This document shows, in pieces, positions 40,617 to 62,982 of a stretch of 64,000 nucleotides of DNA (position 1 is its first letter; each line of letters opens with the position of its first letter). Where the stretch lies: positions 1 through 64,000 of IMG/VR virus record IMGVR_UViG_3300046535_000406. One strand, given 5' to 3'. The notes beneath the pieces were generated by a model, which saw only the letters and a list, made by a program, of their open reading frames with translations, was not told the origin of the DNA and made no database searches. The translations under genes were made by a program, and so were the position numbers. This DNA is from a virus.

Positions 40617-40668
40617 GAAGCTAACCGGCGCTCAGAGCTATTGTTCCCGCTCCGTACATCGTACTTCC

Positions 40669-43600
40669 TCACCAGCCGCTGGACGTGCTGTTCTGGACCA
40701 CCGGGCCGCTGTAGTTCTTGGTGTATTCCCACGGGTCCATGCCCGCCTTCCGGGCTTCGTTGTTCCACATGCTGCCGTCGTACTTGGACAGCCGGATGAT
40801 CTGGGGCAGCTGAAGGTCGCGGGCGATGATTTCGCGCTCGCCCTCGGTGGACTGGAACCAGCTGGGGTTGACGAAAGAGGTGGCGTAGAAGTTTTCGAGG
40901 TTCATCTTGGCCGTGATCATCACGCCCGCGTCCTGCACGAAGCCCGCGCTCAGGCCCAGCGAGCCGCCGCGACCTGACGGGTAGCCCAGCCTGCTGAGTC
41001 GTTCGTAGTACGCCTGCGCATCCGTCGTGTCGGCGACGTTGCGCACCCACAGCCACGTGCCGGTGGCCGGGTCGTAGGCGTTGCGAATGTCCTTGATCCA
41101 CTGGACGCTGCTGTTCTCGTAGCGCGGGTCGAAGGTGGCATGGAGCACGGCCCACTGGTTGATCTTGGAGGCGTAGGCGTAGGCATCGGCGTCCGTCTTG
41201 GAGGCGATGAGCCCGGCACCGTAGGTGCGAGCCGAACCCATCTTCTCGACCGTCTTCTCGCCCGACATGCCGCTGCCGGAGTAGCTATGCACGTATCCGA
41301 GGGCTTCCTGCATGGACGACTTGCTCGGGCGACCCGGCACGTCGGAACTCGGGTCCAGTAGTCGCCGCGCCTCCTTCAGGGGATCGGTGGTCGGCGACGG
41401 CAGCAGGTCGCGGTCCCACTCGGCCATCTTGTCGATGTGCTGCTCGTCGTACGTCAGTTGGAGCCGGAAGACGCCGCCGTCCTGAAGCAGCCAGTCACGC
41501 CACGACTGCGGCACATCGGCGCCCTTGGGACCGGCCATGGCAGCCTTGACTTCACTCGCGAAGAAGGTCTGGTAGTCGCCGCGCACTTGGTTCTTGCGCA
41601 GCAGCGCGGCCTCGCGGAAGGCGTCGTACGACTTCTGGCGCAGGCCCTTCCAGTCGTTCAGCACCGGCTGAATGATCTGTAGGAACTGCTGGTCCGACAT
41701 GGCTTCGAGGTGGCCCAGCGTGCGGGCGATGGCCTTGGGATCGACGTTCGCCAGCAGGGCCGGGTTCTTCCGGGCGTCGCGCCAGAACATGCTCCACATG
41801 GGCAGCAGGCCCATCTCGCCGCCCTGCCCCTCGTTGGCCGGGTCCAGCGTGTCGAACTTGCCGCCCATGCCCACCCAAGAGCGCGTCTTGTCGATGCCCC
41901 AGAGGTGGCCGTCGCTCTGGGACACCATCCAGTTGCCGATGTGGGCGTCGTCGTTGGCCGTCAGCCAGTCAAGGACCGACTGCTGGAAGAACTCGGTCGT
42001 CTGGTCTGGCGTCAGTTCGCCGGGGCTCTTTACGTGCTCGATGTCCGGCACGAGCTTCTGAAGCGCGCCGTTGGTCATCTTGCCGTTGATTTCGAGGGTG
42101 TATTGCTTCACCGGCGGCGTGCGCAGGTCGAGCAGCCCAGCCAGCTGGTTCACGGCCACGTCGGTGCGCGCTCCGCGACCAGAGGCACCGATCTTGAACA
42201 TCCACTCGTTGCCCTGCGAGTCAATGAAGGCGGCCTTGGGCGACTGGCCGCCGAGCCCCTTGGCGCTGAGCAGCTTCAGGTCCTGCGGCACCGGCCAGAT
42301 GGTTGGAGCCACGATCGGGGTCGCGACCGTCCCGGCGGCGGAGGACGCGCCCATCTCGGCTTCGATGTCCTGCCGCATCATGTTGGCCCGGTCGGCGGTC
42401 ACCCTGATCCATGCGCGGCTCGTGGTGGCCGCTTCGGCGCCCTTGTAGCGCAGCAGCAGGTCACGCAGAGCCGGGTTGGCGCTCAGCACCTGCTGGTCCA
42501 CTTCGAGCACGGTGCCGGGCGTGGCAGCGATGTTGGAGAGCAGCGAGTGGAGCATCCGGACGGTGGAGGCGGTGACCTCGGCCTCGGTCGTGCCGGAGGC
42601 GATCGTCAGGTTGGTCCATTCCATGATCGGCCCGGTGCGCAGCCACTCGGCTTCGACCTTGCCGCCCGCCCAGCTGGACACGGCTCGCAGGCCGTTGGCG
42701 CGGATCGTCTCGCCCCCGGCCAGCCACAGGTTGTCGGGGGTTCCGCCCATGATCTTGATGGGCTGGTTGGCGAGCACGCCCTTGGGCAGGTCCACCAGCT
42801 GGGGAGGCTTGGGGATCGCCGCGAGGACTTGCCCCTGAAGGAGCGGGTCTTCGGTGTTGGCGAGCAGCGCGTTGGCGAGCGTTTCAGCCTGCGGCCCTTC
42901 GAGCCTGACGCCGGGACCCAGTGCGTCGAAGAAGCCACCGCCCTGCCCCTCGGCAGGCCGGACCCTGAAGTCCGTGCCGCCCGCACGCAACAGCAGGTCC
43001 TTCATGCCCGGGTGCGCGTCGAGGACCGCGTCGATCACGTACAGGCGGGAGGCGGCCATCACGTTGCCGTCTTCGTCCACGCGCTGGGCCGTCTTCTGTG
43101 CGAGGTCCAGCAACTCGGACCACGTGGCGTCGTTGACTTCCTTCGCGGTGGCACCCAAGCTCTCGGCGCCGACCAAGCTCACCAGCGATCCCGTGGTGCT
43201 GACGGCGTACAGGGTCTTGACTTGGTTGCCGCCCGACACGGTGTACGTGGCTGTCTGGATCGTCTGTGGCAGCTTCGTCCCGGGCACGATCTGCTGGGGA
43301 CCCGGGAGCGCCGCCTCGGACGCACCGAGGTGGTGGGTCGCGATCATCTCGGAGTGGTCGTAGCCCAGCAGGGTGTCGAGCCGGGAGGACGCGGGGATCA
43401 GCGGACCCTGAGCTACCTGCGACAGGGACTGGGCGCTGACCGGCGGCACGTAGAGCGGGCTGTTGGGCGTGATCAGCTTGGCGTTCGGGACGTAGGGCAC
43501 GATCGGTGCCGCCTTCAGGGCGCCCGGCACCATGGTCACCGGCGTGCCGTCTTCGAGCTTCACGCTGACCGTGCTCATGGTCGTGGAGGTGACGGTGCCG

Positions 43601-46600: not shown

Positions 46601-49600
46601 TTCACCTGCGGCGACTCAAGCCCCTGCGCTCCACCGAACCCCGGCCACTTCACATTGGCGGTCTTGGATACGTCGTTGATCGCCACGACCGTGCCGCCCT
46701 TGTATGCGGAGTTGCCGTTCATGTGGTCCACGATGTCGCCGACCTTCAGGCCAGCTGGCTCAGCCGGTTTCGCGAGCAGCATGTCCTTGCCGAAGAAGGG
46801 CAGGCCCGGCGCACCGGCAACGTGGTATTCGTCCACGCCGTCGATCGAGGCGATCACGTCCACCTTGCCGTTCGGGAGCACGACCTGATCGCCGATGCTG
46901 AAGGCCGCCTGCTTGGTGGGCTCGGCCACCTTCGTCACGCTGCCCGCCGGAACGATGTCGCCGGGCGCGAAGGTGTTGCCGATCGACAGCTGCACGTTGC
47001 CGTTGTCGAAGGTGTGCATGACCTTGGCGTACTTGCCGTCCGGCTTCAGCGCCCAGTCTCCGACCTTCAGGCCCTCGGGCGGGATCGGCGTGAAGGCCGG
47101 GACCACGCCCACCTTCACGGCGTGCTCGCCGTTCATGTCGGCCCAGAGATTGCCGTCTGAGTCCTTCACGTCGATCAGGCCGTTCGGCTTCACGGCCATG
47201 ACCTCGTACGTGGGCGGACCGGAGCCGACGAACTTCACCTTGTCGCCGACAGCCAGTGTCGTCGGCGGCGGCTCGATCACGCCCTTCGCGAAGGAGACGG
47301 CAGGCGCGACCTTCGAGAGGTTGGGGTTGGTGGCGGCCTTGTGCACGACCGCGCCGGACTGGGTCGTGATCGTAAGCTCGCCGGACTGGCTGATCTGGGT
47401 GACGGTGCCGGTCTGCATGGGCGTGCCCAAGCTCGGCTTCCCCCACTGCACCTGATCCCCGAGGTTGTAGCCGCCCGCCTTACTGCCCGGGAAGACGACG
47501 TTCGGGGTGGTCGCGGTGTAGGGCGTCACGTCCTCGGGCTTCAGCTTGAACGTCGTGCCGCTGACGGAGGTGACGCTCAGCTTCCCGTTGTGGTCCACGG
47601 AGGTCACGAAGCCGTTCAGCCCCTTGCCCCAGACGATGTGATCGCCTGCCGCGTAGCTGCTTGCGACGGTGGTGGCAGGGACCGGCTTGGGCGCTGACTG
47701 GATCGTCGGCGCGATGCCGGGCGCAGCCTTGGCTTTGACTTCGTCGGCCTTCAGGTCCTTCAGCAGGGCCTCGGCGTCGAGTCGGCCCATCTTGATGTCG
47801 CCCTTGGTGGCAGCGGTGCCGTAGGCCACCTCGAACAGGTTGCGCAGGTCGAGCGGCATCCCGCCCACGATCGACGCCCGGACGACGGTGTATTCGATGC
47901 CCGGCGTGGTTTCCATGGCCTCCGCCATGCGCTTCATGTGGGCCAGCAGCAGGGTGGGCGTGTAGTCGCCTTCGGCGCTTGACACCTCGATGCGCTGGCC
48001 GATCCGCCGCCACTGGACCTTCAGGGCCTGATTGCCGTCGCCGTAGATCGTCTCCTTCAGGGCCTTGTTGGCCGTGCCCGCGAGGTGCACCGGGTGGATC
48101 GTCTGCTCGATGTCAGGGATCGACGCCAGAGCGATCGCCTGCGGGTCGTAGCCCTCGATGGTGCCGAGTGTCGAGAACGTCGGAGCGACCGGCGGTGGGG
48201 CGACGGTCACGATGGTGGGCGCCTGCCCATCGGCCACCAGCTTGTCCCGGATGGCCTGCACGTCCTCCGGCTTGAACGCCATGTCGTTGGTCTTGGACAG
48301 CACGCCGCCGTACGCCTTCAGGGTGTCGCGCATCGACAGGCTGGTCGCGAGGAAGGCGTCGGAGTCAATGCGCAGCCGGTACAGGGAAGGCGTCTTGTCG
48401 AACAGGTCCGCCGCGTGCTGGATGAACGCGAACGCGACGTTGTCCGCGATGTGCTCGGATGGCGCGGTCAGCTTCAGAAGCTCCACCCGGTTGCCCAGTC
48501 GGCGGTAGTCGAGCGAGGAACCGCCGCCCCAGACGACGTGCTTGACGCTCGTGTTGGCACCCGACAGGTAGGCCGCCTTCTCGTTCGTCTCCACGCCCCA
48601 GTGCATGGCGAAGTTGTCCACCACGGCGGGGTCGTATCCGGGCACTGAGCCGAAGGCGAGCGTCACCGGGACAGCGTTGGTCGCGGCTCCCACCTCGGAG
48701 TCGAGGTCGGACACGATCTGGTCCACGTCGGACTTCAGCAGCTTCTGGCTCGGGTCCCAGCCAGCCTCCTCCAACCATGTGCGCACGGGACCCGGTTCGA
48801 GGATCGGCCCCTTCAGGTTCAGGTGAGTCAAGGACGGCGTCGCGTCCATGTAGTCGTTGAACTTCCGCATCTGGGCGGCGAACACACCCAGCTGGTCGCC
48901 GGTGGTCTGCCATAGCTCCAAGCGGTTGCCGATGCGCCGCCACTCCGCCGTGCCGCCGTCGATCGCGCCGGTGCCGTAGTGCGTCTGCTTCATGGTCGTG
49001 TTGGCGCCCGACAGGAGCGAGTGGCCGCTGACCGACTTCTCGTACTGGACGGTGTAGAGGGACGCCGTCAGGGGGTCGTACGCGCCGACGGTGACGGGAT
49101 TGGGCACTGCCAGCGTCGCGCCGGTCAGCACGCCCGTCTGGGGCGGCACAGGGAGCGCCTGTGGACTGGCGATGCCCGACGCCTGCTTGATGTCCTTGGC
49201 AAGCTGCTGGGCGTCTTCGTAGGGCAGGATGATGCGGGTCTGGGAGCCGCTGAGGTCCAGCGATCCGTTGTAGTGGTCGAGCAGCATGTTCTTCCAGTGC
49301 TCATCGATCACGGACAGCGCCTGATCCTCGTAGATGAGCTTCTGCCCGTAGCTCAGTGACTCACCGGCGTACTGGGTGACGACCATGAAGGTCGTGTTCT
49401 GCATGGCGATAGGCGAGGTCAGGTTCAGGATGCGCATCGGCTTGGTGGCGTTGGGCGGGTAGTCGAGCGTCCCGCCGATGTCGAACTTGCCCGCCTTCCA
49501 TGACAGGCTGAGCGCGCCACCTCCGAGGGCCAGCGTGTCTGGGATGGCTCCGATGGCGGCTGCCATCTGGGCGATGTCCTCGGTGGCCCAGCCTGCGAAG

Positions 49601-52600
49601 TCAATCGACCCGGCGACCTTGGTGCCACCGGCTGCCAGCGATCCGACGGTGATCAGCTGGGTGTCCGTGGAGAGTTTCGTCGCGAGGTCCGTGGCCTGCG
49701 CAGCCGTCAGCGTCAACCAGCCGTACTGGCTCTCGACCGCGCCCGCCTGCTTCATCAGGTCGCTCAGCGTGGGCATGGCGTTGAGGAACGAGGTGGGCAC
49801 GATCAGGTTCTTTGGCGCGATCTTCAGCGGGTCGAGCGGGAACGAGGCGATGCCGGACAGCGCGGCCAGATACGAGGCGTCGCTGCCCAGCGTCGTGCCG
49901 CCGATCGAGTAGAGGACCAGATCGCCTTGCAGGTTCTTCTTCATCGAGGCGTACAGGCCGCCGATCGCGCCGCCGACGGGCTTGACTTGGTACGCAGACT
50001 CACCCGTGGCGAGTTGGGTCTGCCAGCCCTTGTCGAACTCAGCCTTGCTGACGCCCAGCTTCTGGAACAGGCCGCCGACTGCCCCCGGCGGACGGGTCAT
50101 CTTCAGTGTCGCGGGGCTCGTCACGAGCGAAGTGCCGTCGGGGAGCTTCATCACGATCATCCCGCCGGACACGCCCTGCGGCGGAGTGATTTCGCTGACC
50201 ACGCCCGAGGAGCCTGACGGCGTCGTCACGTGGTCGCCGATCTTGAACGGATTGGTGGGTACGACAGGCGTCGGTGCGGCCCCGGCTGGCTTCACCAGCG
50301 CCCAGACAGGCCACTTGTCGATGTGGCCGTCGGCGTATTGGACGGTCGCGCCGTAGAAGTCGAGGCCAGTGATCGACTTGATTTCGACCTTGGTGCCGCT
50401 CGGCAGCAGGGCCGTGTCACCCACGTTCCACGTCAGGAACGGGTGCAGGTTCTTGGCGCTCACGTCCTGCGCGGTCGCGCCGTCGAGCTTGGTGACCGCG
50501 TACGTGCCGTTCGGGTGGATGGCAGAGATGATGCCGTCTTGGCCGTCGAGCGAGGACACGCCGGTGCCAGAGATGTGGACCTTGCCGTCGATCCGCAATG
50601 GCGGGCCGTGCTGGACCATCACCACCTTGGCGTCGCCGATCCCATAGGCCGTGGTCGAGCCCCCGGTATCGACCGCGATGGTCAGGATGCCGTTCGGCGC
50701 GATCTGGGTGACCGTGCCGGTCAGGCCCTCGATTTCGACCTTGGCCCCCACGGTGATGCCCGCAGGCACCCCGCCGGGAGCCATGACGCCGGGCGCCGTA
50801 CCCGGAGCGGGCGCCAACTCCTCGGCCTTGAACGAGACATAGGGAGCGCCGGGCAGCGCCACGTCGTAATACGTCTCGCCGGACGAGAGCAGCCCCACGT
50901 GGGTGATCGAGCCGACCTGCCCGCTGAACGCAGCGCCCTTGGTGACCAGCACCGCATCGCCGACCTTGAACGGCTCGGTAGTCGCTGCCGGGACCCGCGC
51001 CAGTTCCGTCGGTGCGACGGGGAAGGCGTTGGCCGCAGCGCCCTTGACGGTGATCAGGCCGCTGGGCGAGACTGCTTGGATGGTCACCTGCTCCGGGTGG
51101 GCGAAGCCGGGTGGCTGCCAGAGAGCCTGATCGCCGACCTTCCACGGCTCGGCAGCAGTCGTCACGGCACCCGTGCCCGGCGTAAGGCCCGGGTACTTGC
51201 CGAGCTTCAGGTCCTTCTGAACCTCGGAGACGGGGCTGGTGAACTTCGCGCCGCCCGTGACGGCGATGACTTGGTTCGCGTCGATGGTCTGGACGATCGC
51301 TCCGTGTTGGAGCTTGTCGCCGACCTTCACCACGTTGTCCGGGTTAGCCCACGCCCAAGCCTCGCTGCCGACAGCCTTGACCTGTATCTGGACCGGCGTG
51401 ATCCCGGTGTCGATCTTGGTGATCGTGGCGTGGCCCAGCGTCGGGTGGATGACCGCGTCGCCCACCTGCGGAGCCACCGAGGACAACTCGCCGACGGTGA
51501 AGCTCTTGTAGGCGCCGGACGGCAGGGTCACCTCGATCACGTCACCGGGCAGGACCTTGTTGACCTTGCCCACGCCGAACGCGGTCTTCACCACGTCGCC
51601 CTGCACGAAGGTGGTGACGGCGGCCACGGGGGTGGCTGTTCCGACCGCCCACGCCGGGCTGCTGAAGCCGGGTTTCACGAGCGACGACACGGCCATCCAC
51701 GTGGTCGAGCCATCCGGAAGCTCCACGAGCGCGAGTGTCCCGACCGGGTCGATGGTCTGAACGGTGACCATCTGGCCCTTGCCGCTGATCTGCTCGATGA
51801 CCGTGTCGCCGACCTTCAGCGGCGGCTGGGTCACGCCGACATCCGGTACGTGCTTCAGGCCAACGGTGGTCGGGTCGATCAGCAGCCCCGCTCCCGCTCC
51901 GGGCGAGATGTCCCACGTGATGCCGACCTTGCCGTCCGCCACGTTCGTGATCGTGCCGGTGGCGTCCCACATATTCGCGACGTGATCCCCGACCTTGAAC
52001 GTGGCCGACGGCTCGACGTGCTTCAGCATGACGTTCGGGTGCGTGGGATCGAAGGCGGTGCTCGTGATGCCGCTGTCCCACGTGACGGTCACCTTGCCTG
52101 CGTCTGGGAACACGGCAGCGATCACGCCCTTGGTGCCAGAGAGGCCGCCGGACTGGACCTTGTCGCCGACGCGGAAGCCAGCAGCAGAGGGAGCCGCAGG
52201 CGCAGTAGGCGCACCGAGCGACCCGGTCTTGGTGAGGGGAACGCCGAGCGTCGTCGCGTTGGGGTCCACGTGGATGGAGGGTGAGGTTCCAGTGGCCCAG
52301 TGCACGTCGATGAAGCCATCGGCATGGACGAACGTCACCGCGCCCTTCACGCCTGCGCCGTTGACGAGCGTGTCGCCGACCTCCCACGCGGGCTGCGACC
52401 CGATGAACGTCAGGTTCGCGTTCCATGGCTCGGTCGCGAACAGCTTGCCATCGGCGGTGGTCTTCAGGAACAGGATGTCCGGCTCGATCTTGGTGATCGA
52501 GCCCTCGTTGCCGAGATAGTTGACGAGGTCGCCGATCTGCCATTGGTGGGCCAGCGACAGGTCGGCGATCGAGAAGGTCTGCTCCCCGAAGCCGATCTTC

Positions 52601-55600
52601 ACGAGGGCCTTCTGCCCATCGGCGCTGATCGAGGCGATCAGGGCGGGCTTGTTGTCGAGGGTGTGCACCATGTCGCCGGGCTTCAGCGACGTGATCGCCT
52701 TCACGATCGGCTTCAGCTGGTCCGCGAGGAAGTAGCTCGTCACGCTCGGGAACTTCACGTAGAACGTGCCGCCCGCCACGGCATCGATCACCGTGCCGAT
52801 CCCATAGGTCGCGTGGAGCACGGTGTCGCCGATCGCGAACGCTGCCGGGGCGACCGAGGCGACCGCCGCCACGTCGGTCAGGTCGTTCAGCAGCGAATGG
52901 ACGAGGCCGATGGTGTTGGGGCGGCTGAGTATCCAGCCACCGAGCACGCTCGACGGCTTCAGCCCGGCAGCCGTGAGCATCTGCTTGGTCTTGTCGCCCA
53001 GCACGTTCATAACCGCGTCATCGATGCGGACCGCGAGGTGGTTGACCCCGTACAGGGCGGGGTTCTGCATCACGCCCGCGAAGTATTGGAGTTGCCCCAC
53101 CAGCGCCGCCGCCACGTCAGGCTCGCTTACGTTCTCGCCGGTGATCACTTGGTTCAGCCGGAGGTTGCCGTTGGGCGACGTGTCCCAGTAGAACTCCACG
53201 TCGCCGCCCTTGCTGGTCGTCCACACCTGCTTCTGCGGGTGCGACTTCAGGTCAGGGCCGTCAGGCGTCGGGATGCCGGTCCCGGTGCCGTTGACGAAGT
53301 TGTACGCCTCGTGCTGGTCGAAGCCCCACTTCTCGCCGATGCCCGTGGTGCCTTGGGCCGACAGCTTGTTCGGCGTGGCCGTGACCACGTGGCCCAGCGT
53401 CTGATCGAGCGACTTGGCCTGCGCAGCAGGGTGCATGGCAGCCGTGGTGATCCCGGGTGGCGGCAGCAGTGACGTGATCGAGACGTTCTGGTCGGTGGCC
53501 TTCCGGAGCAGCTGAAGCTGCGGAGCGTCAAGCCGCCACGAGCCACCCTCGCTCTTGCTGCCGAGCACGGTGAACAGGTCCGCCAGCTTGGCCGTCTCGG
53601 TGGTGGAGACGGTGACTTCGACCTCCATGCCCTTGTCGGCCTGTCGCAGGATTTCCTTCAGCAGGATCGCCCGGCGCGTCTCGATGCCGGTGACCTTCCA
53701 CTCGGGCACGCCCATGCGGACGAAGCTGCTGGCCGCGTTCGGGTAGAACAGGTTGATGGGCTGATCGGTGGTGCCGATCTTCCAGTGCACGCTGCTCAGG
53801 ACTTCGTCCGGTGCCTTGCCTTCGCTGACGAACAGCGAGGTGTCCCATGCGGGCTTGGCGACGCCGTACGTCTCGAAGAACGGGTCCGCCGGAGCCTCCA
53901 CGCCATGGGTGGCGAAGTGCGTTGGCGTGTTCGTGCCGACGATCTGTCCCACGGCGATGGTCGGGTCAGCCGGTCCCAGCTTGGCCGCGAGGGTGTCAGT
54001 GACAGCCGGTGTCAGTGTCAGTGTCGGGGCGTCAGCCGACAGGGCGGTGGGATCGGCCATGATCTTGGCGACCTTCACCGCATCGCCGTTGCCGATCAGC
54101 AGGGTCTTGCCGAAGCCGGGCACCTCGCCCGGGATGCCCAGCAGGGCGAAGTCAGCCTTGCCGAAGCCCATGGAGCCCTCGATCGAGAGGTCCCAGCCCT
54201 TGGGCAGGTTGGTCACCATGGCGAGCATCGCGTTGGCCCGAAGCTGGGCCATGGCCGGATCAGCCGCCGCCACCAGCACGCCGCTGTCGTTCTTGAACGC
54301 CGTCAGCACCCAGCGACGTGTCTTGGCCGCTTCGTCGTCGCGGAAGAACACCGAGGACGTGCCATCTGGTCCGCCCGGAAGCTCGACCTTCATCAGCCCG
54401 GTCGGCATCGAGGTGGGCGTCCAGACGCCAGCCGATGCCTCAGCGATCTGGGGGTCGTACCCCAGTTGCTCGTGGAGGAACGGCGATCCGCCACTCACGT
54501 CATCGGGGGACATGCCCAGCAGGCGGGCAGGCGGCTCGGTGATCGGAGGCGCGACCGGCGGCAGGCCAGCCTGTTCGAGGTAGGAGTCGAGCACCTTGGT
54601 GTCGCGGGAGTCGGGCTTGTCGTAGCGCAGCAGGACCGGGCGCACCTCGGACGGAGTGCCCAGTCTTACGCTGTACGTCTCCTTGATCGTCTTGGCCCAC
54701 GCCGGACCGCCGCCTGTCCGGTGGGCCACGTAGTAGCGGGTGATCGAGCCGTTGTCGGTGGCGGTGAAGTCACCGAGGTACTTGTCAAGCTCCACGCTGA
54801 AGCCCATTTCCTCACGGGCCTCGCGCACGGCAGCCTGCGCGGTCGTCTCGTTCAGGTCCACGCCGCCCTTGGCGAAGGTGTTCTCGTAGCCCGCCCAGCG
54901 GTTGCGCGGGGAGATGATCCACATGCGGCCATCGGGCTCGACCAGCACCACGCCTGCACGGAGGCTGTGTGTGCCCTTCTTTGCCACGTCGTAGGCGTCG
55001 ATCGTGTCCAGCTGCTTCTGGCTGTAGCCCAGCGTGTCCTTCCAGAACGCATCGCTGTTGGTGTCGAGCCCACCCTTGACGGCCTTGTCCAGCGCATCGA
55101 GGTCGGCCTTGGACTTGGCCGCGTAATACTGGCTGCCGATCTTCTGCTCGAACAGGCCAGCCTTCTTTGCGGCGTCCGACTCGGCTTGGCTCCACGTGAT
55201 CGCGTACTTGGCCTCGCCCGACTGGACGGCCTCCCAGCGCAGCCACGCCTTGTCGGCGGCCTCGCGCATGTCCTTCAGCTGCCAGTCCGCCACGGCGCCT
55301 TCAGGCAGCGGAGGCTCCTCGGGCACATGGCCGGTCCAGTCAACCGGCGGCGTGTTCAGCGGAGCGATCCCTTCGACGGGGATGGGCTCCACCGTGGTGC
55401 CGGGTTCGAGCACCGGCGCCTTCTCATCGATCTTGAACGTCAGCCCGTCGAACGGCGTGTCAGGCTTTGGCGGGGCCGTGAACGACTTGAACGGGACGCC
55501 CGTGTATTGGTAGCCCGGCACGACCCCGGTGTCCGGCACGAGGTCTACGACCGAGACGTTCTCGGCCAGCCCAAGCTCCTTGCCGTCGGTGACGCGCACG

Positions 55601-58600
55601 ATCCGCCAGCGCAGGTTGCGCGGCAACTGGACCTGATAGGTGGCCTCGCCTGCGCTGAGCCGGAAGCCCTTGGGCACGTGCATTCGCTGGACCACCCCGC
55701 CGGGGATCGCGAAGTTGTACGCCTTGTTGCCGCTGCTCGTGGCGAACGGGATGGCCTTGTCCACGTAGCTGTCGCCGACCTTGCCCAGCGCGCCCGCCTT
55801 CAGGCTCTGGCCTCGGTACAGGATGCCCGGGGCCGTCGTCTCGGCTTGGGTGGACAGGCGGTCGTAGTAGTCGAGCAGGTCCTTGCCCTTGACCATGGTT
55901 CCATCGACCGACTGGTCGGCGACGTGCTCCCCTGCGCGAAGGGACTTGTTGATGGCGCCCGTGTCCACCGCGTTCCACTCGGCGGCGTCCGCGATGGGCT
56001 TCAGGTTCGGTTCCAGCCACCACTCGTCCTTCGGGTTCAGCAGCTGGGTGACGATGCCAGCCGAGCCCTCCGGCGCAAACTCGGCGGCGGTGGGCGCTGG
56101 CGGCAGTGGCACTTCTGGCTTGGACCACTGCGGCGTGAGCTTCTTGTCCCAGAGCGTCGCCGCAGCCGGTAGCACCTCGGTGGGCGCCTCGAACGTGCTG
56201 CCCTTGATGAGCCACACCTGCCAGTCGGTGGGCACGACGGACACGTCCTTCTTCCACAGCGTCGCCATGTTCCGGATCAGCTTGGTGGCGCCTTCGCGCT
56301 CAGCCTCGGGCAGAGCGAGCACGGCGTCGCGCACCGCCTGCGGCGTGTTGTTCTTGAAGAAGCCGGTGTCCTTGGGCTTCATCACGTCCGTCAGGTTCAC
56401 GCTCGGCAGGTCCTGCGGAGAGAAGCCCAGCAGCGGATCGGCTGGCTTGGCCGGGTAGAACTTGTCGAAGATCGCGGCCAGCTGCTTCGTCTCGGGCTGG
56501 TTCATCCCCTCGATGGCGCCCGCGAACGTCTCGGCCCATAGCTCGTGCTGGTTCGAGCGGGCGTACTTCGAGATGTGCGTCGTCTTCAGGGCAGGCCAGA
56601 GGGTTGACTTCAGCCACGGCTCCAACTCCTGCCGCACCGGCGCGTAGCGATCCGCGCCCAGCCGCGAGTGGAGGTTCATGCCCAGCCATTCGTGGCCCAT
56701 CTCGTGGGTCACCACGTCGGAGGCCCACTCGTCGGCGTTGGTCGCGATCTGGCCGCCGACGCTGAACGGGACGTTGGCCTTGTCCCGCAGGAACGCCTTC
56801 TGCAAGGCCGTCGAGTCGGTGAACATGGCGCGGTTCAGGAACACCTTGGAGCCGGGCACGTTGGGGTCGATGCGGGCCACTTCGGCGATCGTGCCCTTGC
56901 CCGGCGCGTAGGTGCGCAGCGCGACGCCACGGAAGCTGGGGATCGTGCCGAAGCGGCTGAACAGCATGTCCATGCGCTTCGCCAGCACCTTGCCGGTGTC
57001 AAACGGCACTTCGAGCAGGCCGCTCCAATCCGTGCCCGGGTAGCGGGCCTCCATGCGCGCCACAAGCTCGGACACGTTGGTGACCTCGGACACGGTCGCG
57101 CCCAGATCAGCCGGTGGCGTGTACGGGAAGGTGCCGCCGTCATCGAGCCACGCCTTCCACGCTGCGCTCGGGTGGTCGGCGATGGTGGTGCGATCTGCGA
57201 ACAGGTCCTCGACCGATTGACGCAGGTTGTGCTTGCGGCTCAGCAGGTCGGCCTTGGCGGCGTCCGTGGTGAGCGCGTCACCGACGGCGTTCAGCAACTG
57301 CTGGTCGGTGACGCCATCGAAGCGATCGAGCGTGGTCGCCACGTCCTGTGGGGTGAGGCGCAGCAGCAGGTCCGGGGAGTGGTCGATCCTGCCGAACATC
57401 GACGCATCAGCCCGCTCATAGAAGTCCGTCAGGGATGGCGTCAGGCCGGAGCCCAGCCGGTCGAAGCCGTAGCCCTTGTCGATCGCCCACACGCGCCCGG
57501 AGTCGTAGAGGTAGTTCCCGCCGTGGCCGTCGGCGTTGTGGATCAGGTAGTCAACGAGCCCGTGGCCGAACAGCTGCCGTTCCTCGTCGTGGCCCAGCAC
57601 CCGGGCCAGCGTGGCGGCGTCGGGCGCTCGGACCCAGTAGCTCTGGGCGGTGCGAGGCACGAGTGCCTGCCACGCATACCACGGGTTGTCGCCGGTGCCG
57701 AACGCGATCCGCGCAACCGGCGGAGCATCGAGGCCAAACAGGGTGGTGACGCGGGAGCCTGCGACTTCCTCCGAGACGCCGTAGGGCTTCAGCAGGAACT
57801 CCTGCCCGGTCGGGTCCTTCAGCAGGACACGCGGCGTGGTGCCCTTGCCCAGCTTGTCCGCGCTGCCCCACTTCCAGCCGGGCAGCAGGCCGCCGGTGCC
57901 CCACTTGCTCGGGTCAACGAGCACCTGCTCGGTCGGGAAGGCGCCGAACTTGGTGACCGGGAACGTAATCTCGGGCGTGTGCCACACACCCCCTTCGCGC
58001 ATCAGCGACCACGCCTCGGTGTCACCGGCCAGCGTGCCGGGAATGTAGTCGGGCCGGGTCATGGCGGTGAACGCCTCGGCCCAGAACTCCTCGTCCGAGG
58101 TGTCGGCGTAGGACTTCAGCTTCAGCAGGTTGTCGCCCCGGAAGTCAGCCTTGAACGTGTTCCAGCGATCAGCGCCCAGTCGCTGAGAGAGGCGGTTCGA
58201 CACGAGGTGGCCGTACTCGTGAGCCCATGCGTCGCCGAAGGTGTTCGAGACGGTGATCTTCCCGGCCAGCCCCATCTCGGGTTCGAGGTTGATGCGCCCG
58301 TCGCTGAAGGCTCGGCCCGCGTAGCCCACGCCGTCGCTTGACTCGATCACGGACAGCGCGCTGTTCAGGGAGCGGTCGATGCCCAGCTGGTCGAATAGCT
58401 CGGCCTTGGCTCGCAGCATGTCCCACTGGGCAGACGAGAACGCCTCGCCCGCGAGGTTCTTCATGCCCGGGAACAGGGCCATGGCGTCGGCCATGGGGTG
58501 CTCCGGCGACGGCTCGAAGGCGGTCTGGACGATGGCGTTGGCGTTGCTGACGTGCGGCTCCGCCGCAAGGGCGCGGAAGCTGGGCATCTCCGGCATCTCG

Positions 58601-60780
58601 CGCATCCACGTCAACTGCGGCCCGGGCAGGATCGGGTGCTCGGTGAAGATCGAGGCTCCGGCGGCGATCGTGTCGGGGATGCGCTGTGCCAGCGGTAGCT
58701 CGGCGGACACCGCGCCCAGCCCGTTCAGGAAGTCGGCCAGCCCCTGATTGACCAGCCGGTTGTCGAACTGAAGGCTGAGCCCGCGCTCTGCTGCGCTCTG
58801 AGCGGCCCAGCGGATGGCCGCCACGGTCATTTCCGGCTCGAAGGTGTGTGAAGACGCACCCGTCATCGCGCCGGTGATGAAGCGCAGGTTCTTGGCGTCC
58901 TCCTGATAGACGGCGGAGTAGGTGTTGTCGCCCAGCGCGAACTTCTGGACCAGCACCGGACCGACGCCCGGCTCGCGTATCCCATCCCGAATGTACGGAG
59001 CGTGCAGATCGGGCGGGTGCTTCAGCCACGCAAGCTCCTCGGGCAGGGCCAGCGCCGGGGCGTCAACGACGATCTGGGAGGCCACGTCGGTGTCCCACGT
59101 GAAGGCGTTCTGGTCGGCCACCGGCTGCTGCGACGGACCGTAGTCAGGCAGGTCGCCCAGCAGCGACGCCACCGGGATGGGCGTGCCGCAGGCGTCGGCC
59201 TCCTTGATCCACACGAGGTTGATCGGTCCCTCGGTGACCATGGACTCGGCGAAGTCGGAGATGCCTGCCAGCGGGTCGCCGCAGACGGTGTCGGGCACGT
59301 CGTACTCGAAGCGGCACTTGCAGTTGAGTCCGCACTGGGTGTGGCCGGAGCCCGGGAACAGGCCCATGCTCATCAGCGCGTCGTAGCTGTACGGGCTCAT
59401 GTCCGATAGCTCGATGCAGTCGTCGCAGTGGTCCGCGTCGCCCAGCGTCCACCAGACTTGGATGATCTGGCCCATGGGCGTCGGCGAGAACACGTGATCC
59501 TGACCGATGGCCGACTGCACGTTCGCCACGTCGGCAACCGTCTGGGCCGTGGGTGTGGCGCCCGTCACGGGCGCGATGTTGTCGCCCACTCGGAAGGCTG
59601 CGCGCTCGCCCGCCTGCGCGAGGGAGTGGAAGTCGTTCAGGGCACCGCCGACCAGCAGCGCCCGGAGCCACTTCACCGTGTCCGGCTGTGCGAGGTTCCA
59701 CGGGTTCAGGACGTTCTTCACGATCCAGTTCAGCAGGCCGCCCTTGGCGTGGAGCGCGGCATCTGCCGCCACCATGCTGTCGGTGATGTCGCCTTGGTTG
59801 TCGGCGCTCAGCTGGTTCGCGTTGCGAGCACCAGCGGCCCTGCGCGCTGCCCGCATGGCACGGAGAGCTTGGGCGTGCAGGATGGCGTTGACTCGGGCAG
59901 CGGCCTCCTGCGGCGTGATCCTCCCGGATTGGAGCAGCCGGGTGACCACGGCCAGCTGGTTGCGCACGGCGGCCTGAGCACTGGCGCTGATCTTGGCGAT
60001 GGCGGCCAGCAGCTTCCTGACTTGGGCCTGCTGCACCAGCGTCTGGTTGGCCTGTGCCAGCTTCGCTCGCTCAGCCGCGATGCGATCGAGGATGACCGGG
60101 ATTGACGTGTTCTCGGAGTCGGCCACCGCCCGAGCGAAGCCCTTGCGCATCACGTCGTCCATGCGCACGGCGACCGACTGCAACAGCAGGGCCTCCATGG
60201 CCGGGGCGTCCTTGGCCTGCTTGGGGTCCTTGCCGTTGGTGGTGGTGATCAGGCGCCCGATCAGGTCGCCCACGGAGCCGACCGGGATGACCGTCTCGGC
60301 GGGTGCCAGCCCGGCGGCCATGAGCGTGCGCTGAATGTCCTGCTGGTCCTGCGTCGAGAGCCGTGACAGGTTGCCCAGCGATCGCTTGCCGACGGTGTAG
60401 GCGTTGCTCGCCTGACGCAGGTAGGCCGCGCTGAGCGCCGCCGTGAACTGGGTGCTGGTCAGCGTGCCAGCCTGAAACTGCTCGATCAGCAGCAGCGCCG
60501 ACTCCACGAACTGGCGCACTGCCCGGGACAGGCGCTCATCGGCGCCGGGGTTGCGCTGGGCCGGTCCCCAGCCGATCACCGGCAGCCCTGCGCTCAGCGC
60601 GTAGGCGATCGCCTGAAGGTGGTTGATGTCCCGGTCCGAGGCGACGATGCCCGTCGCGTCCTCTTGGATGGCAACGTCGTACTGGGGGTCGTACCAGAGA
60701 GGATCACTGGCGCTTCGCAGCGCCTCGGTGATCTGTTCCAGCAGCGCCTCGGTGAGGTCCCGGTCAGTCTCCGCGACCAT
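40669..60780 (-). CDS. giant MuF (SPP1 gp7-like) polyvalent head protein, ~6703 aa
   Basis: Follows the portal; MuF-like Cys cluster HCDDC...PG.G.TQCGLNCKC (~59290-59460); HEYGH and HEMGH peptidases; two kinase-like domains; ART-like domain; Nudix box; ~40 SH3/KOW-like repeats; C-terminal ART-like domain; ATG 60780 overlaps the portal end. Confidence 0.9.
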   Translation of the reverse strand: MVAETDRDLTEALLEQITEALRSASDPLWYDPQYDVAIQEDATGIVASDRDINHLQAIAYALSAGLPVIGWGPAQRNPGADERLSRAVRQFVESALLLIEQFQAGTLTSTQFTAALSAAYLRQASNAYTVGKRSLGNLSRLSTQDQQDIQRTLMAAGLAPAETVIPVGSVGDLIGRLITTTNGKDPKQAKDAPAMEALLLQSVAVRMDDVMRKGFARAVADSENTSIPVILDRIAAERAKLAQANQTLVQQAQVRKLLAAIAKISASAQAAVRNQLAVVTRLLQSGRITPQEAAARVNAILHAQALRAMRAARRAAGARNANQLSADNQGDITDSMVAADAALHAKGGLLNWIVKNVLNPWNLAQPDTVKWLRALLVGGALNDFHSLAQAGERAAFRVGDNIAPVTGATPTAQTVADVANVQSAIGQDHVFSPTPMGQIIQVWWTLGDADHCDDCIELSDMSPYSYDALMSMGLFPGSGHTQCGLNCKCRFEYDVPDTVCGDPLAGISDFAESMVTEGPINLVWIKEADACGTPIPVASLLGDLPDYGPSQQPVADQNAFTWDTDVASQIVVDAPALALPEELAWLKHPPDLHAPYIRDGIREPGVGPVLVQKFALGDNTYSAVYQEDAKNLRFITGAMTGASSHTFEPEMTVAAIRWAAQSAAERGLSLQFDNRLVNQGLADFLNGLGAVSAELPLAQRIPDTIAAGASIFTEHPILPGPQLTWMREMPEMPSFRALAAEPHVSNANAIVQTAFEPSPEHPMADAMALFPGMKNLAGEAFSSAQWDMLRAKAELFDQLGIDRSLNSALSVIESSDGVGYAGRAFSDGRINLEPEMGLAGKITVSNTFGDAWAHEYGHLVSNRLSQRLGADRWNTFKADFRGDNLLKLKSYADTSDEEFWAEAFTAMTRPDYIPGTLAGDTEAWSLMREGGVWHTPEITFPVTKFGAFPTEQVLVDPSKWGTGGLLPGWKWGSADKLGKGTTPRVLLKDPTGQEFLLKPYGVSEEVAGSRVTTLFGLDAPPVARIAFGTGDNPWYAWQALVPRTAQSYWVRAPDAATLARVLGHDEERQLFGHGLVDYLIHNADGHGGNYLYDSGRVWAIDKGYGFDRLGSGLTPSLTDFYERADASMFGRIDHSPDLLLRLTPQDVATTLDRFDGVTDQQLLNAVGDALTTDAAKADLLSRKHNLRQSVEDLFADRTTIADHPSAAWKAWLDDGGTFPYTPPADLGATVSEVTNVSELVARMEARYPGTDWSGLLEVPFDTGKVLAKRMDMLFSRFGTIPSFRGVALRTYAPGKGTIAEVARIDPNVPGSKVFLNRAMFTDSTALQKAFLRDKANVPFSVGGQIATNADEWASDVVTHEMGHEWLGMNLHSRLGADRYAPVRQELEPWLKSTLWPALKTTHISKYARSNQHELWAETFAGAIEGMNQPETKQLAAIFDKFYPAKPADPLLGFSPQDLPSVNLTDVMKPKDTGFFKNNTPQAVRDAVLALPEAEREGATKLIRNMATLWKKDVSVVPTDWQVWLIKGSTFEAPTEVLPAAATLWDKKLTPQWSKPEVPLPPAPTAAEFAPEGSAGIVTQLLNPKDEWWLEPNLKPIADAAEWNAVDTGAINKSLRAGEHVADQSVDGTMVKGKDLLDYYDRLSTQAETTAPGILYRGQSLKAGALGKVGDSYVDKAIPFATSSGNKAYNFAIPGGVVQRMHVPKGFRLSAGEATYQVQLPRNLRWRIVRVTDGKELGLAENVSVVDLVPDTGVVPGYQYTGVPFKSFTAPPKPDTPFDGLTFKIDEKAPVLEPGTTVEPIPVEGIAPLNTPPVDWTGHVPEEPPLPEGAVADWQLKDMREAADKAWLRWEAVQSGEAKYAITWSQAESDAAKKAGLFEQKIGSQYYAAKSKADLDALDKAVKGGLDTNSDAFWKDTLGYSQKQLDTIDAYDVAKKGTHSLRAGVVLVEPDGRMWIISPRNRWAGYENTFAKGGVDLNETTAQAAVREAREEMGFSVELDKYLGDFTATDNGSITRYYVAHRTGGGPAWAKTIKETYSVRLGTPSEVRPVLLRYDKPDSRDTKVLDSYLEQAGLPPVAPPITEPPARLLGMSPDDVSGGSPFLHEQLGYDPQIAEASAGVWTPTSMPTGLMKVELPGGPDGTSSVFFRDDEAAKTRRWVLTAFKNDSGVLVAAADPAMAQLRANAMLAMVTNLPKGWDLSIEGSMGFGKADFALLGIPGEVPGFGKTLLIGNGDAVKVAKIMADPTALSADAPTLTLTPAVTDTLAAKLGPADPTIAVGQIVGTNTPTHFATHGVEAPADPFFETYGVAKPAWDTSLFVSEGKAPDEVLSSVHWKIGTTDQPINLFYPNAASSFVRMGVPEWKVTGIETRRAILLKEILRQADKGMEVEVTVSTTETAKLADLFTVLGSKSEGGSWRLDAPQLQLLRKATDQNVSITSLLPPPGITTAAMHPAAQAKSLDQTLGHVVTATPNKLSAQGTTGIGEKWGFDQHEAYNFVNGTGTGIPTPDGPDLKSHPQKQVWTTSKGGDVEFYWDTSPNGNLRLNQVITGENVSEPDVAAALVGQLQYFAGVMQNPALYGVNHLAVRIDDAVMNVLGDKTKQMLTAAGLKPSSVLGGWILSRPNTIGLVHSLLNDLTDVAAVASVAPAAFAIGDTVLHATYGIGTVIDAVAGGTFYVKFPSVTSYFLADQLKPIVKAITSLKPGDMVHTLDNKPALIASISADGQKALVKIGFGEQTFSIADLSLAHQWQIGDLVNYLGNEGSITKIEPDILFLKTTADGKLFATEPWNANLTFIGSQPAWEVGDTLVNGAGVKGAVTFVHADGFIDVHWATGTSPSIHVDPNATTLGVPLTKTGSLGAPTAPAAPSAAGFRVGDKVQSGGLSGTKGVIAAVFPDAGKVTVTWDSGITSTAFDPTHPNVMLKHVEPSATFKVGDHVANMWDATGTITNVADGKVGITWDISPGAGAGLLIDPTTVGLKHVPDVGVTQPPLKVGDTVIEQISGKGQMVTVQTIDPVGTLALVELPDGSTTWMAVSSLVKPGFSSPAWAVGTATPVAAVTTFVQGDVVKTAFGVGKVNKVLPGDVIEVTLPSGAYKSFTVGELSSVAPQVGDAVIHPTLGHATITKIDTGITPVQIQVKAVGSEAWAWANPDNVVKVGDKLQHGAIVQTIDANQVIAVTGGAKFTSPVSEVQKDLKLGKYPGLTPGTGAVTTAAEPWKVGDQALWQPPGFAHPEQVTIQAVSPSGLITVKGAAANAFPVAPTELARVPAATTEPFKVGDAVLVTKGAAFSGQVGSITHVGLLSSGETYYDVALPGAPYVSFKAEELAPAPGTAPGVMAPGGVPAGITVGAKVEIEGLTGTVTQIAPNGILTIAVDTGGSTTAYGIGDAKVVMVQHGPPLRIDGKVHISGTGVSSLDGQDGIISAIHPNGTYAVTKLDGATAQDVSAKNLHPFLTWNVGDTALLPSGTKVEIKSITGLDFYGATVQYADGHIDKWPVWALVKPAGAAPTPVVPTNPFKIGDHVTTPSGSSGVVSEITPPQGVSGGMIVMKLPDGTSLVTSPATLKMTRPPGAVGGLFQKLGVSKAEFDKGWQTQLATGESAYQVKPVGGAIGGLYASMKKNLQGDLVLYSIGGTTLGSDASYLAALSGIASFPLDPLKIAPKNLIVPTSFLNAMPTLSDLMKQAGAVESQYGWLTLTAAQATDLATKLSTDTQLITVGSLAAGGTKVAGSIDFAGWATEDIAQMAAAIGAIPDTLALGGGALSLSWKAGKFDIGGTLDYPPNATKPMRILNLTSPIAMQNTTFMVVTQYAGESLSYGQKLIYEDQALSVIDEHWKNMLLDHYNGSLDLSGSQTRIILPYEDAQQLAKDIKQASGIASPQALPVPPQTGVLTGATLAVPNPVTVGAYDPLTASLYTVQYEKSVSGHSLLSGANTTMKQTHYGTGAIDGGTAEWRRIGNRLELWQTTGDQLGVFAAQMRKFNDYMDATPSLTHLNLKGPILEPGPVRTWLEEAGWDPSQKLLKSDVDQIVSDLDSEVGAATNAVPVTLAFGSVPGYDPAVVDNFAMHWGVETNEKAAYLSGANTSVKHVVWGGGSSLDYRRLGNRVELLKLTAPSEHIADNVAFAFIQHAADLFDKTPSLYRLRIDSDAFLATSLSMRDTLKAYGGVLSKTNDMAFKPEDVQAIRDKLVADGQAPTIVTVAPPPVAPTFSTLGTIEGYDPQAIALASIPDIEQTIHPVHLAGTANKALKETIYGDGNQALKVQWRRIGQRIEVSSAEGDYTPTLLLAHMKRMAEAMETTPGIEYTVVRASIVGGMPLDLRNLFEVAYGTAATKGDIKMGRLDAEALLKDLKADEVKAKAAPGIAPTIQSAPKPVPATTVASSYAAGDHIVWGKGLNGFVTSVDHNGKLSVTSVSGTTFKLKPEDVTPYTATTPNVVFPGSKAGGYNLGDQVQWGKPSLGTPMQTGTVTQISQSGELTITTQSGAVVHKAATNPNLSKVAPAVSFAKGVIEPPPTTLAVGDKVKFVGSGPPTYEVMAVKPNGLIDVKDSDGNLWADMNGEHAVKVGVVPAFTPIPPEGLKVGDWALKPDGKYAKVMHTFDNGNVQLSIGNTFAPGDIVPAGSVTKVAEPTKQAAFSIGDQVVLPNGKVDVIASIDGVDEYHVAGAPGLPFFGKDMLLAKPAEPAGLKVGDIVDHMNGNSAYKGGTVVAINDVSKTANVKWPGFGGAQGLESPQVNLKLVGAPPPVLAKVGDEIVVKPGGGDATGDVATYGGQMGTVNYVSLNGQMMDVTMLDGSTGTFAQNEVIVSAKAGTLTPAAVPSPLTPKAGDTVSVNGKTGTVMGTHGIVNGEMTWGVEFPGEPVWGYFPTSQLSAAVGPKVGGKVTVKAIGGAFDGETGTITAISPDGLDIEVILNDEHATQVTFEPSELENANPAPFRIGEHVNYGGQNLTVTKLFPVTGNVQAMGVDGTPFVLVPESVNKGWITATTPAPKFAVGDKVLTNDYGIGTIAQVNSATVEVSFDPLTSPNAPSSKIYNPAKLTPKPQIKVGDSVLTYGGDEGVVNYLSPDGLTAHVTTMTANLTQETKDLTLVKVQPGFHQGDWVTVPTGQTGKIAYVTDDGTKANVTLGTAGVGSGTGTLTVKTELLKPAAAPKYAIGDKVTFTDAGNQPITATVTQLNQPSGMVIVTSDVTGYPLLKAESDLTPFVAPEPVPATFVVGDKVKWTPTGTSGVVTNVSDNAVTVKWEGSGTVSTAKGGPGSAYASIVKPVPSAGETYVPKPGDTVAQPLYGTGTVIEKTPYSPTAMVDFGANGKQLVGISTLTKVEPGTVATVKASTAPAGLKVGDQVTHPSFGTGTVTEVSSGSTVLVDWDTYPKSWTNVAFLTPTGVNVPKVVAPTLSKAALSAHKLAVGDWVLKQDGNYGKIVKVFKNGKAKVTIQSYGSGANIPMSQLSYVQTWPASEVAVGDTVVYYTGGKPYVVTEIPDTGYYLKALYSGNTTGNVQQLGKTSVTIVQKGVGNLETGDPVFASGFGLAEVVSVDSTVNPATVTVALEDGTTQTLVGQDIKPIPKLWKAGDIGQLPSGKVGTVTNVSTDTITLDVGGNPASAAIPDLKAPEPPANPLKTGDFVMTPKGQMGVVTNAASPSGLLVNVAPEGLPPVVETYNQLLLKQLPQPWKVGDYALLPNGVNAMITSISPVGDVTLSMKGSSVIQTATLDQLKASPYAPNPWKFGDKVITPQGNGTVTSTTMSTVSVKLEDGTPVTMVPGALKAAPIVPYVPNAKLITPNSPLYVPPVSAQSLSQVAQGPLIPASSRLDTLLGYDHSEMIATHHLGASEAALPGPQQIVPGTKLPQTIQTATYTVSGGNQVKTLYAVSTTGSLVSLVGAESLGATAKEVNDATWSELLDLAQKTAQRVDEDGNVMAASRLYVIDAVLDAHPGMKDLLLRAGGTDFRVRPAEGQGGGFFDALGPGVRLEGPQAETLANALLANTEDPLLQGQVLAAIPKPPQLVDLPKGVLANQPIKIMGGTPDNLWLAGGETIRANGLRAVSSWAGGKVEAEWLRTGPIMEWTNLTIASGTTEAEVTASTVRMLHSLLSNIAATPGTVLEVDQQVLSANPALRDLLLRYKGAEAATTSRAWIRVTADRANMMRQDIEAEMGASSAAGTVATPIVAPTIWPVPQDLKLLSAKGLGGQSPKAAFIDSQGNEWMFKIGASGRGARTDVAVNQLAGLLDLRTPPVKQYTLEINGKMTNGALQKLVPDIEHVKSPGELTPDQTTEFFQQSVLDWLTANDDAHIGNWMVSQSDGHLWGIDKTRSWVGMGGKFDTLDPANEGQGGEMGLLPMWSMFWRDARKNPALLANVDPKAIARTLGHLEAMSDQQFLQIIQPVLNDWKGLRQKSYDAFREAALLRKNQVRGDYQTFFASEVKAAMAGPKGADVPQSWRDWLLQDGGVFRLQLTYDEQHIDKMAEWDRDLLPSPTTDPLKEARRLLDPSSDVPGRPSKSSMQEALGYVHSYSGSGMSGEKTVEKMGSARTYGAGLIASKTDADAYAYASKINQWAVLHATFDPRYENSSVQWIKDIRNAYDPATGTWLWVRNVADTTDAQAYYERLSRLGYPSGRGGSLGLSAGFVQDAGVMITAKMNLENFYATSFVNPSWFQSTEGEREIIARDLQLPQIIRLSKYDGSMWNNEARKAGMDPWEYTKNYSGPVVQNSTSSGW
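43510..47655 (-). repeat. array 2 of ~24 SH3/KOW-like beta-barrel repeats
   Basis: Same consensus, e.g. LKVGDQVTHPSFGTGTVTEV. Confidence 0.85.
50100..52839 (-). repeat. array 1 of ~16 SH3/KOW-like beta-barrel repeats
   Basis: (F/W/L)x(V/I)GDxV...G.(V/I)...V units of ~50-60 aa, counted by eye. Confidence 0.85.
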
Positions 60781-62839: not shown

Positions 62840-62982
62840 CACCAGCACCTGAAGTGCGCCCCATCCTGAACGTCGAAGCTCGGCACGCCCGGATGGGGCA
62901 GAACGCCGCTCCTCAAGAACCGGGGTTGCCGGTCGCGGGGAAAGCCTATCACGGGCGTCCAGACTGCTGGTACTGTGCGCGC

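Follow-up and report, generated by a model that had tools for sequence, protein, structure and literature searches.

Polyvalent proteins of phages are single polypeptides that combine many effector-type domains and whose genes lie among those for virion proteins. They have 2-15 domains, are often longer than 2,000 aa, and include a zincin metallopeptidase (MPTase) defined via its link to lethal factor, as well as ADP-ribosyltransferase (ART) and kinase domains; these proteins are predicted to be packaged and injected (Iyer et al. 2017, PMC5512222). The same combination is found in the product of a giant gene (hereafter, the giant) located on the minus strand at positions 40669-60780 of the virus record IMGVR_UViG_3300046535_000406, for which packaging and injection may likewise be predicted. 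The stretch analyzed here, referred to as the window, comprises the first 64 kb (64,000 nucleotides) of this linear IMG/VR record, which is 109,497 bp long and an estimated 87% complete. In contrast to the polyvalent proteins described by Iyer et al., the giant has ~55 folded units in 6,703 aa. Its kinases, whose C-terminal lobe is helical, belong to the PI4K/HipA/CtkA type, whereas those described previously come from a truncated Ser/Thr kinase clade. Its Nudix domain is central and best conserved, whereas Nudix is barely mentioned in that work, and neither ~40 SH3-like repeats nor a Cys/His cluster of the phrog_24776 type is described there.

A second group of related systems includes MuF proteins, SPP1 gp7 and MuF-toxin fusions (PF04233; PMC5576092; PMC7302621), among them the MuF-VIP2 fusions of Microbacterium phages (PMC7302621). 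As in the giant, the gene is located directly after the portal gene, and enzymes follow an N-terminal domain. In a MuF-like variant of actinophages (GACEFC...GHDNCHC), the pattern W...CxxC...H...NCxC occurs in a register that appears to be the same as in the giant. This variant is represented by gp54 of the mycobacteriophage prophiFSQJ01-1, a 1,170-aa 'minor capsid and ADP-ribosyltransferase fusion protein' encoded directly behind the portal gene of a Mycobacterium prophage; gp54 also shares a kinase-like domain with the giant. Unlike MuF proteins, the giant has no MuF profile match and is 6-20 times longer.

Two further systems are comparable in size. Genes of the Microbacterium EK phages and Burro encode proteins of >4,400 aa, the largest in any actinobacteriophage and, in 2020, among the largest viral proteins (PMC7302621). 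Like the giant, these proteins are huge and highly divergent, with few recognizable domains, and they were described as likely processed and virion associated. The giant exceeds them in length by half and has enzymes that can be identified, and the EK/Burro proteins were not matched when three parts of the giant were searched by tblastn against 50,697 phage records. The virion RNA polymerase of phage N4 (~3,500 aa) is a giant protein that is carried in the head and expelled from it, and it has an MPTase-like region needed for encapsidation (PMC13434306, PMC5512222). The protein studied here also has MPTase-like regions and would also be carried in the head and expelled, but it lacks an RNA polymerase domain, belongs to another phage type and is twice the size. 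Overall, the concept is already known from these systems, and the family of the giant is larger than the EK/Burro proteins.

In this study, we carried out a computational analysis of the giant, its relatives and its neighbors. The reading we favor, to which we assign a probability of about 0.6, is that it is an intact late gene for a 709-kDa polyvalent protein of the head module, representing an undescribed family, and that the protein is packaged and injected in the way outlined below.

An intact gene with giant relatives

The original prediction, made from the sequence of this region, described one open reading frame (ORF) of ~20 kb at 40669-60780 with a MuF Cys cluster, two peptidases, two kinase-like regions, a Nudix domain, a degenerate and a C-terminal ART-like domain and two SH3-like arrays, and called the product polyvalent. 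The frame is indeed uninterrupted and evenly coding, and all of these features were found where they had been placed (the Cys cluster at aa 464-501, the sequence motifs, the arrays and the C-terminal R...ExE). The term polyvalent is also appropriate, as one chain encoded among virion genes contains a Nudix domain, two zincins, two atypical kinases and a probable C-terminal ART.

The gene probably starts with an ATG at 60780, ends with a TGA at 40669-40671, and encodes 6,703 aa (709 kDa, pI 5.2). The ORF counted from its first TTG (60816) has 6,715 codons; the ATG at 60780 is the start common to the relatives and to the database gene call (P0002). G+C content of the window is 66%, and all real genes are on its minus strand. 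In each 300-codon block of the giant, G+C content at the third codon position (GC3) is 0.88-0.94, and that at the first and second positions is ~0.63 and ~0.47, respectively. The even GC3 indicates that the entire length is read in one coding frame.

Since the record is a metagenomic assembly, an assembly chimera was considered, as was a fortuitous open frame in GC-rich DNA. The uniform GC3 argues against both, as do collinear relatives in other assemblies and the chance of an equally long stop-free run, which is ~e^-160 when estimated from ~2.4% stop triplets at 66% GC. We regard this explanation as scarcely conceivable and treat the giant as a genuine gene.

When residues 1-560 were used as the query in a full HMMER search of 1.84 billion representatives, 178 matches were obtained, which include 15 proteins of 4,805-7,742 aa as well as several shorter ones that are probably truncated. 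BLASTP comparisons showed that the giant proteins keep the same order of parts, and at least 16 metagenomic relatives in this size range have a collinear N-terminus, core and C-terminus. The giants share two stretches of the N-terminus (aa 13-165 and 420-710), followed by kinase-like domains with one or more peptidases, then a block at aa 1767-2090, the repeats of ~125 aa and, toward the C-terminus, a block at aa ~6050-6710. In terms of domains, the fixed order is a helical N-terminus with a Cys/His metal cluster, zincin and atypical kinase domains, the helical and Nudix core, beta-barrel arrays that vary among members, and a terminal module of kinase and ART-like domain. One of the relatives, located in another IMG/VR record of 47.6 kb (G001), is an open frame of 5,719 aa that appears to be the same as database protein P0023. 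Its start overlaps the end of the portal gene in that record (phrog_10963, 1.4e-45) by 26 nt. Collinear relatives in separate assemblies mean that independent assemblies agree on the architecture. The giant and these relatives form a previously undescribed protein family of uncultured phages, with lengths of 4.8-7.7 thousand residues. Its size, taken as extreme in the original prediction, is so, but it is not unique, as relatives reach 7,742 aa.

A query with the N-terminus gave no DNA or protein match in 50,697 GenBank phage records, and locus searches with single proteins returned only near-identical loci or unrelated Nudix loci. phmmer searches of the PDB with the 2,500 N-terminal and 943 C-terminal residues gave weak Nudix matches only.

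Enzymatic domains and repeat arrays

The best-conserved block of the family is a helical region with a Nudix hydrolase at 54547-55449 (as with all features of the giant given below, on the minus strand), in which the Nudix domain proper occupies ~54577-54984. This domain matches PF00293 at 3.7e-10, with 40.4 bits versus a curated cut-off of 21.1, and its catalytic box (GX5EX7REUXEEXGU) is intact: GGVDLNETTAQAAVREAREEMGF. Box residues R232, E233, E236 and E237 are invariant in 16 sequences. The helical and Nudix block is 41-65% identical to all 15 relatives; in BLASTP pairwise matches, the block at aa 1767-2090 was the best-conserved part, with 40-52% identity. The closest Nudix domain from an isolated phage is in a 'particle associated protein' of Yersinia phage fHe-Yen8-01, which adjoins a particle-associated ART toxin of 2,146 aa. 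In three viral and metagenomic contigs fetched via the Nudix motif, L005 (IMGVR_UViG_3300029922_000014), L033 and L007, a kinase-like domain of the gp54 type is encoded in ORFs with lengths from 1,677 to >2,500 aa, so more distant polyvalent proteins appear to pair Nudix and kinase.

Two zincin metallopeptidases, which are paralogous (29% identity), are located upstream of the Nudix block. The first (57937-58479) contains HEYGH...Y...EEFWAE and resembles anthrax lethal factor; the second (56437-56949) contains HEMGH...Y...HELWAE and is absent from the relative P0003. Pfam matches were sub-threshold for both (ATLF, 8.9e-4, below the gathering cut-off, for the first and Peptidase_Mx, 3.9e-3, for the second). 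When the PDB was searched with a profile built from three zincin copies, catalytic domains of lethal factor were the only matches (E = 1.3e-3), and in the alignment with lethal factor the HExxH motif, the Tyr and the third-ligand Glu all line up.

The two kinase-like regions are also paralogous (E = 2.5e-12), and their motifs are kept across the family. Kinase-like domain 1 (57037-57894) has the pattern K...DGHGGN...IDK. Kinase domain 2 (41467-42309) has K6208, the catalytic loop N-D-D-A-H-x-x-N and the motif I-D-K. Both the Lys that binds ATP and the catalytic DxHxxN loop of the kinase fold are present, as is its metal-binding Asp. Domain 1 matched TIGR03843 at 3e-4 and HipA_C and PI3_PI4_kinase at 0.13; Pfam cut-offs for kinases were not reached (22.9 versus 30.5 bits for HipA_C, and 19.2 versus 27.1 for PI3_PI4_kinase). 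We assign both regions to the atypical PI3/4-kinase/HipA/CtkA type. In addition, a GNAT-like fold at 58672-59088 (aa 577-715), which was absent from the original prediction, is a lead to a further domain.

The C-terminal domain (40672-41229) is a probable ART, judging from motif order and profile matches. R6578, E6660 and E6662 are invariant; R6592, in predicted strand 1, is near-invariant, and a GxSxG motif is located in predicted strand 2. The predicted order of elements (strand with Arg, helix, strand with GxSxG, two strands, loop, ExE, strand) fits an ART of the R-S-E type. In hhalign, the family profile of this domain aligned with the window's own PF03496 ART over 99 columns (P = 5e-4) and with the ART of gp54 (P = 1.7e-3), both with R, S and ExE in register. 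The domain had no Pfam match, and a two-sequence profile gave nothing meaningful in the PDB. The protein-language-model Atlas provided a weak lead (0.86) to ART-PolyVal and PARP. A fold search of the C-terminal part returned a list filled by the kinase domain, and a search for shorter homologues of the ART-like part found only a fragment of the same protein.

The order of an N-terminal head anchor, repeats and a C-terminal ART-like domain is also what would be expected of a MuF-type polymorphic toxin sensu Jamet et al. 2017 (PMC5576092), which is delivered by particles to kill competitors and does not serve the phage's own infection. This explanation is highly improbable for the giant. The C-terminal module is conserved across the family and not polymorphic. 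No gene resembling an immunity gene was identified, and the small ORF that directly follows the giant (40293-40631) matches no PHROG. The phage genome is ~110 kb, and no integrase or lysogeny gene was noticed in the parts examined. In our preferred reading, the C-terminal ART would be part of an effector set that serves infection by the phage itself.

A second ART-like segment, the degenerate ART of the original prediction, is an insert at 55447-56049 (aa 1590-1790). The motifs INKSLR, LYRG, FATS and QVQLPR are present and ExE is absent; the assignment to ARTs is less secure, resting on these motifs and on the Atlas, where PF03496 clusters gave 17 of 30 matches and a lead of 0.95. The segment had no HMM match, no sequence homologue and no counterpart in any giant relative. 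When the two ART-like parts were compared with the window's ART by BLASTP, neither gave a significant match. The internal segment appears to be an insertion specific to this lineage and is probably inactive.

The remaining chain is dominated by repeats. Two SH3/KOW/Tudor-like arrays, which had been predicted as SH3-like, were delineated with an iterated hidden Markov model (HMM): array 1 (50092-52848; aa 2657-3575) has ~15 units of ~55 aa, and array 2 (43495-47817; aa 4334-5774) has ~25. The consensus of these ~40 units is PAPFKVGDTV...G.TGTV..V. In Pfam, array 2 weakly matched YajC (2e-8), CarD_TRCF_RID (9.9e-6) and PcrA_UvrD_tudor (4e-5), and array 1 gave weak SH3-fold matches. Summed repeat scores pass the cut-offs for YajC (34.4 versus 28.2) and CarD_TRCF_RID (26 versus 23), with no single repeat matching at full length. 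Between the arrays, three copies of a ~125-aa domain (GYD...WRRxGNxxE) occupy 47872-49197; each giant relative has 2-5 copies. Two other conserved regions flank the repeats. One (52852-54549; aa 2090-2655) is 33-49% identical to P0003, P0006 and P0008 and has no family match, and the other (42337-43494; aa 5775-6160) is 52% identical to P0003 and 26-35% identical to other relatives.

The distribution of Cys in the chain is uneven. All seven Cys residues are located within aa 452-531 (numbering of the 6,703-aa protein), where they form the N-terminal cluster or, in the case of two, lie just downstream. The other ~6,170 residues contain none, whereas other virion genes encode 0.47% Cys on average. 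The tape measure protein (17596-22302) and a 1,910-aa tail protein (3492-9224) are also Cys-free.

These properties could also be those of a structural protein on the outside of the virion that acts at the envelope, e.g., a head fiber, adhesin or trans-envelope conduit, whose SH3-like arrays bind the cell wall or another surface polymer while its enzymes act on the envelope. SH3b-type domains of phage lysins bind peptidoglycan. The giant has ~2,400 residues of SH3-fold-like repeats, and a Cys-free composition is typical of extracellular proteins as well. However, the repeats match KOW, Tudor and YajC models, and these weakly, with no match to SH3b or cell-wall-binding families, and the gene is located in the portal-to-capsid slot and not among the tail genes. 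Moreover, Nudix enzymes, ATP-dependent kinases and NAD-dependent ARTs need cytoplasmic cofactors. An envelope-acting protein is thus improbable, and delivery of the giant from the head into the cytoplasm is preferred.

The N-terminus and its position behind the portal

The giant was originally described as MuF-anchored. Its N-terminus consists of a helical region (59497-60780; aa 13-440 in the numbering of the ORF from the first TTG), which is conserved in all giant relatives, and a Cys/His cluster domain (59272-59484) with W456, H463-C464-x2-C467, P488, G491-H492, C495 and C499-x-C501. An AlphaFold (AF2) model of aa 1-720 had a mean predicted local distance difference test (pLDDT) score of 75.7, with 85-94 for aa 60-170 and 270-410. 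Alignments of 61-133 sequences show no or almost no variation in the cluster columns W456, H463, C464, C467, P488, G491, C495, C499 and C501. Short homologues that match the cluster alone are 200-500 aa long; 50 of 60 short homologues of this domain belong to phrog_24776, a PHROG of unknown function that also includes the domain of the giant, and none of the 60 carries PF04233.

Three relatives have an insert of ~240-275 aa in this domain that resembles a class-1 intein (L004:6962-7787, from the G001 record; P0003, aa 481-754; and P0028, aa 215-489). The insert begins with CL..GT.VAGA and ends with VVSN/VLVSN, immediately ahead of the invariant Cys equivalent to C495; for P0003, a precomputed match to PF14890 (intein splicing) is available. 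Inteins tend toward critical sites. Their location directly before an invariant Cys of the cluster marks this site as functionally critical.

Profile searches did not connect the N-terminus with MuF. PF04233 gave nothing at E <= 10 in the giant or in the whole 109-kb record, whereas the same search matched 8 of 14 control genomes, and the MuF models of NCBIfam and PHROGs did not match the N-terminus. The family HMMs TIGR01641 and PF04233 do not recognize the giant and, conversely, the HMM of the giant family misses SPP1 gp7 and mycobacteriophage gp54. phmmer searches of the giant family with these two proteins gave only non-significant, motif-level alignments. In hhalign, HCDDC...GHTQCGLNCKC was in register with GACEFC...GHDNCHC of gp54 (P = 0.05), and the alignment with CNCRC of SPP1 gp7 (P = 0.006) covered 8 columns only. 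Structural comparisons of the N-terminal model were not significant: only generic helical bundles were found in the PDB, and Foldseek against BFVD gave no match at E <= 1e-3, with 8 of the top 50 rows labeled MuF, head morphogenesis or minor capsid. A predicted complex of the portal with N-terminal residues 300-530 scored 0.00, which weighs neither way.

In tblastn, the portal gene (60764-63001, minus strand; 745 aa; phrog_10963, 2.3e-34) weakly matched annotated portals from phages of Arthrobacter and Brevibacterium, and its stop overlaps the start of the giant by 17 nt. The slot directly after the portal is also occupied by the giant relative in G001 and, in locus L002, by a short phrog_24776 homologue, which sits behind a terminase and a portal. 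That all three are directly behind the portal favors a MuF-like role. The description as MuF-anchored is consequently not supported as it stands: the N-terminus resembles MuF only in gene position and in the register of a CxxC...H...NCxC motif, no MuF model matches it, and most of its short homologues belong to phrog_24776. We consider it very likely that the N-terminus is a functional analogue of MuF; the odds that it is a very divergent MuF homologue are about even. The slot behind the portal provides a first functional context for this PHROG.

Proposed packaging and delivery, and neighboring genes

The features described above suggest the following model. The N-terminal domain would fill the MuF/gp7 slot and recruit a few copies of the giant to the portal or procapsid, so that the chain would be enclosed in the head and exit via the tail along with the DNA. 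A Cys-free, beads-on-a-string build of ~40 small barrels may make the chain easy to unfold and thread. Once in the host, the chain itself or host proteins would be cut by the lethal-factor-like zincins. Host proteins would also be modified, by the kinases and by the C-terminal R-S-ExE ART, and the Nudix enzyme would remove a nucleotide or an ADP-ribose-derived compound. The combined enzymes might serve early takeover or counter-defense.

Several points weigh against this model. Packaging and injection are inferred. A 709-kDa chain with ~55 folded domains would have to pass through a siphovirus-type tail. No profile detects homology of the N-terminus to MuF, and the fold search was not significant. 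The internal ART-like segment reads QVQLPR instead of the catalytic [QE]xE, and ~40% of the chain (aa 2090-2655, 3576-3873 and 5775-6160, and the ~125-aa repeats) has no assigned function. Prohead-protease sites of the pattern [ILV][RS]E[AS] are not enriched in the giant (1 versus 0.8 expected), so cleavage at domain boundaries is not supported by this pattern.

Genes downstream of the giant encode a protease-like protein, a capsid protein of PF25209, tagged effectors and the tape measure protein. The tag, DDHFYGAWxGG(4-5 residues)GGHP, occurs in eight copies on the minus strand between 25554 and 37150 of the window. Its carriers include the protease-like gene (35231-37540) and an ART gene (26242-27498, minus strand), whose free-standing 418-aa product matches PF03496 at 4.5e-22 and follows two tag copies. 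The giant has no copy. It had been proposed that the same enzyme classes recur as free tagged cargo, with two parallel delivery routes; the shared tag is confirmed, and its absence from the giant fits two loading routes, which themselves remain conjectural.

The absence of the tag could also indicate, together with the lack of MuF model matches, that the giant is not packaged at all. It might be a late cytoplasmic polyprotein, acting in host manipulation or as an assembly factor, whose adjacency to the portal is incidental. This possibility is unlikely, as the overlap with the portal gene is kept in two phages, the slot is also taken by short homologues of the N-terminal domain, and homologous kinase and Nudix modules occur in proteins annotated as minor capsid or particle-associated. 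Packaging and injection of the giant remain our preferred reading. A more far-reaching version, in which these are the largest phage virion proteins yet, with a new portal-proximal metal-cluster anchor (phrog_24776, split by an intein in some members), loading independent of the tag on the small effectors, Cys-free mini-barrel spacers whose mechanical unfolding would allow a >700-kDa enzyme chain to thread through the tail, and self-cleavage by the lethal-factor-like peptidases into a kinase/ART/Nudix kit, is rather doubtful.

If packaged, the family would set a new upper size for proteins carried and injected by a tailed phage and offer a natural test of the loading and threading of very long multi-domain chains. 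If not packaged, it would still represent an unusually rich, unannotated set of phage enzymes. The core of Nudix, PI4K/HipA-like kinase and ART-like domains is kept in at least 16 diverged clusters, which points to a widespread, unstudied chemistry of early takeover or counter-defense.

The capsid gene (32763-33755) matches PF25209 and PHROGs annotated as fused protease-capsid, and the 769-aa product of 35231-37540, upstream of it, has only a weak match to head-maturation proteases. A PHROG scan found no recognizable terminase within 12 kb upstream of the portal gene. A 321-aa protein encoded upstream of the portal region (L114:11002-11967; G000 74001-74966) belongs to phrog_2859 (1.6e-26), which is also matched by two of the short homologues of the Cys cluster.

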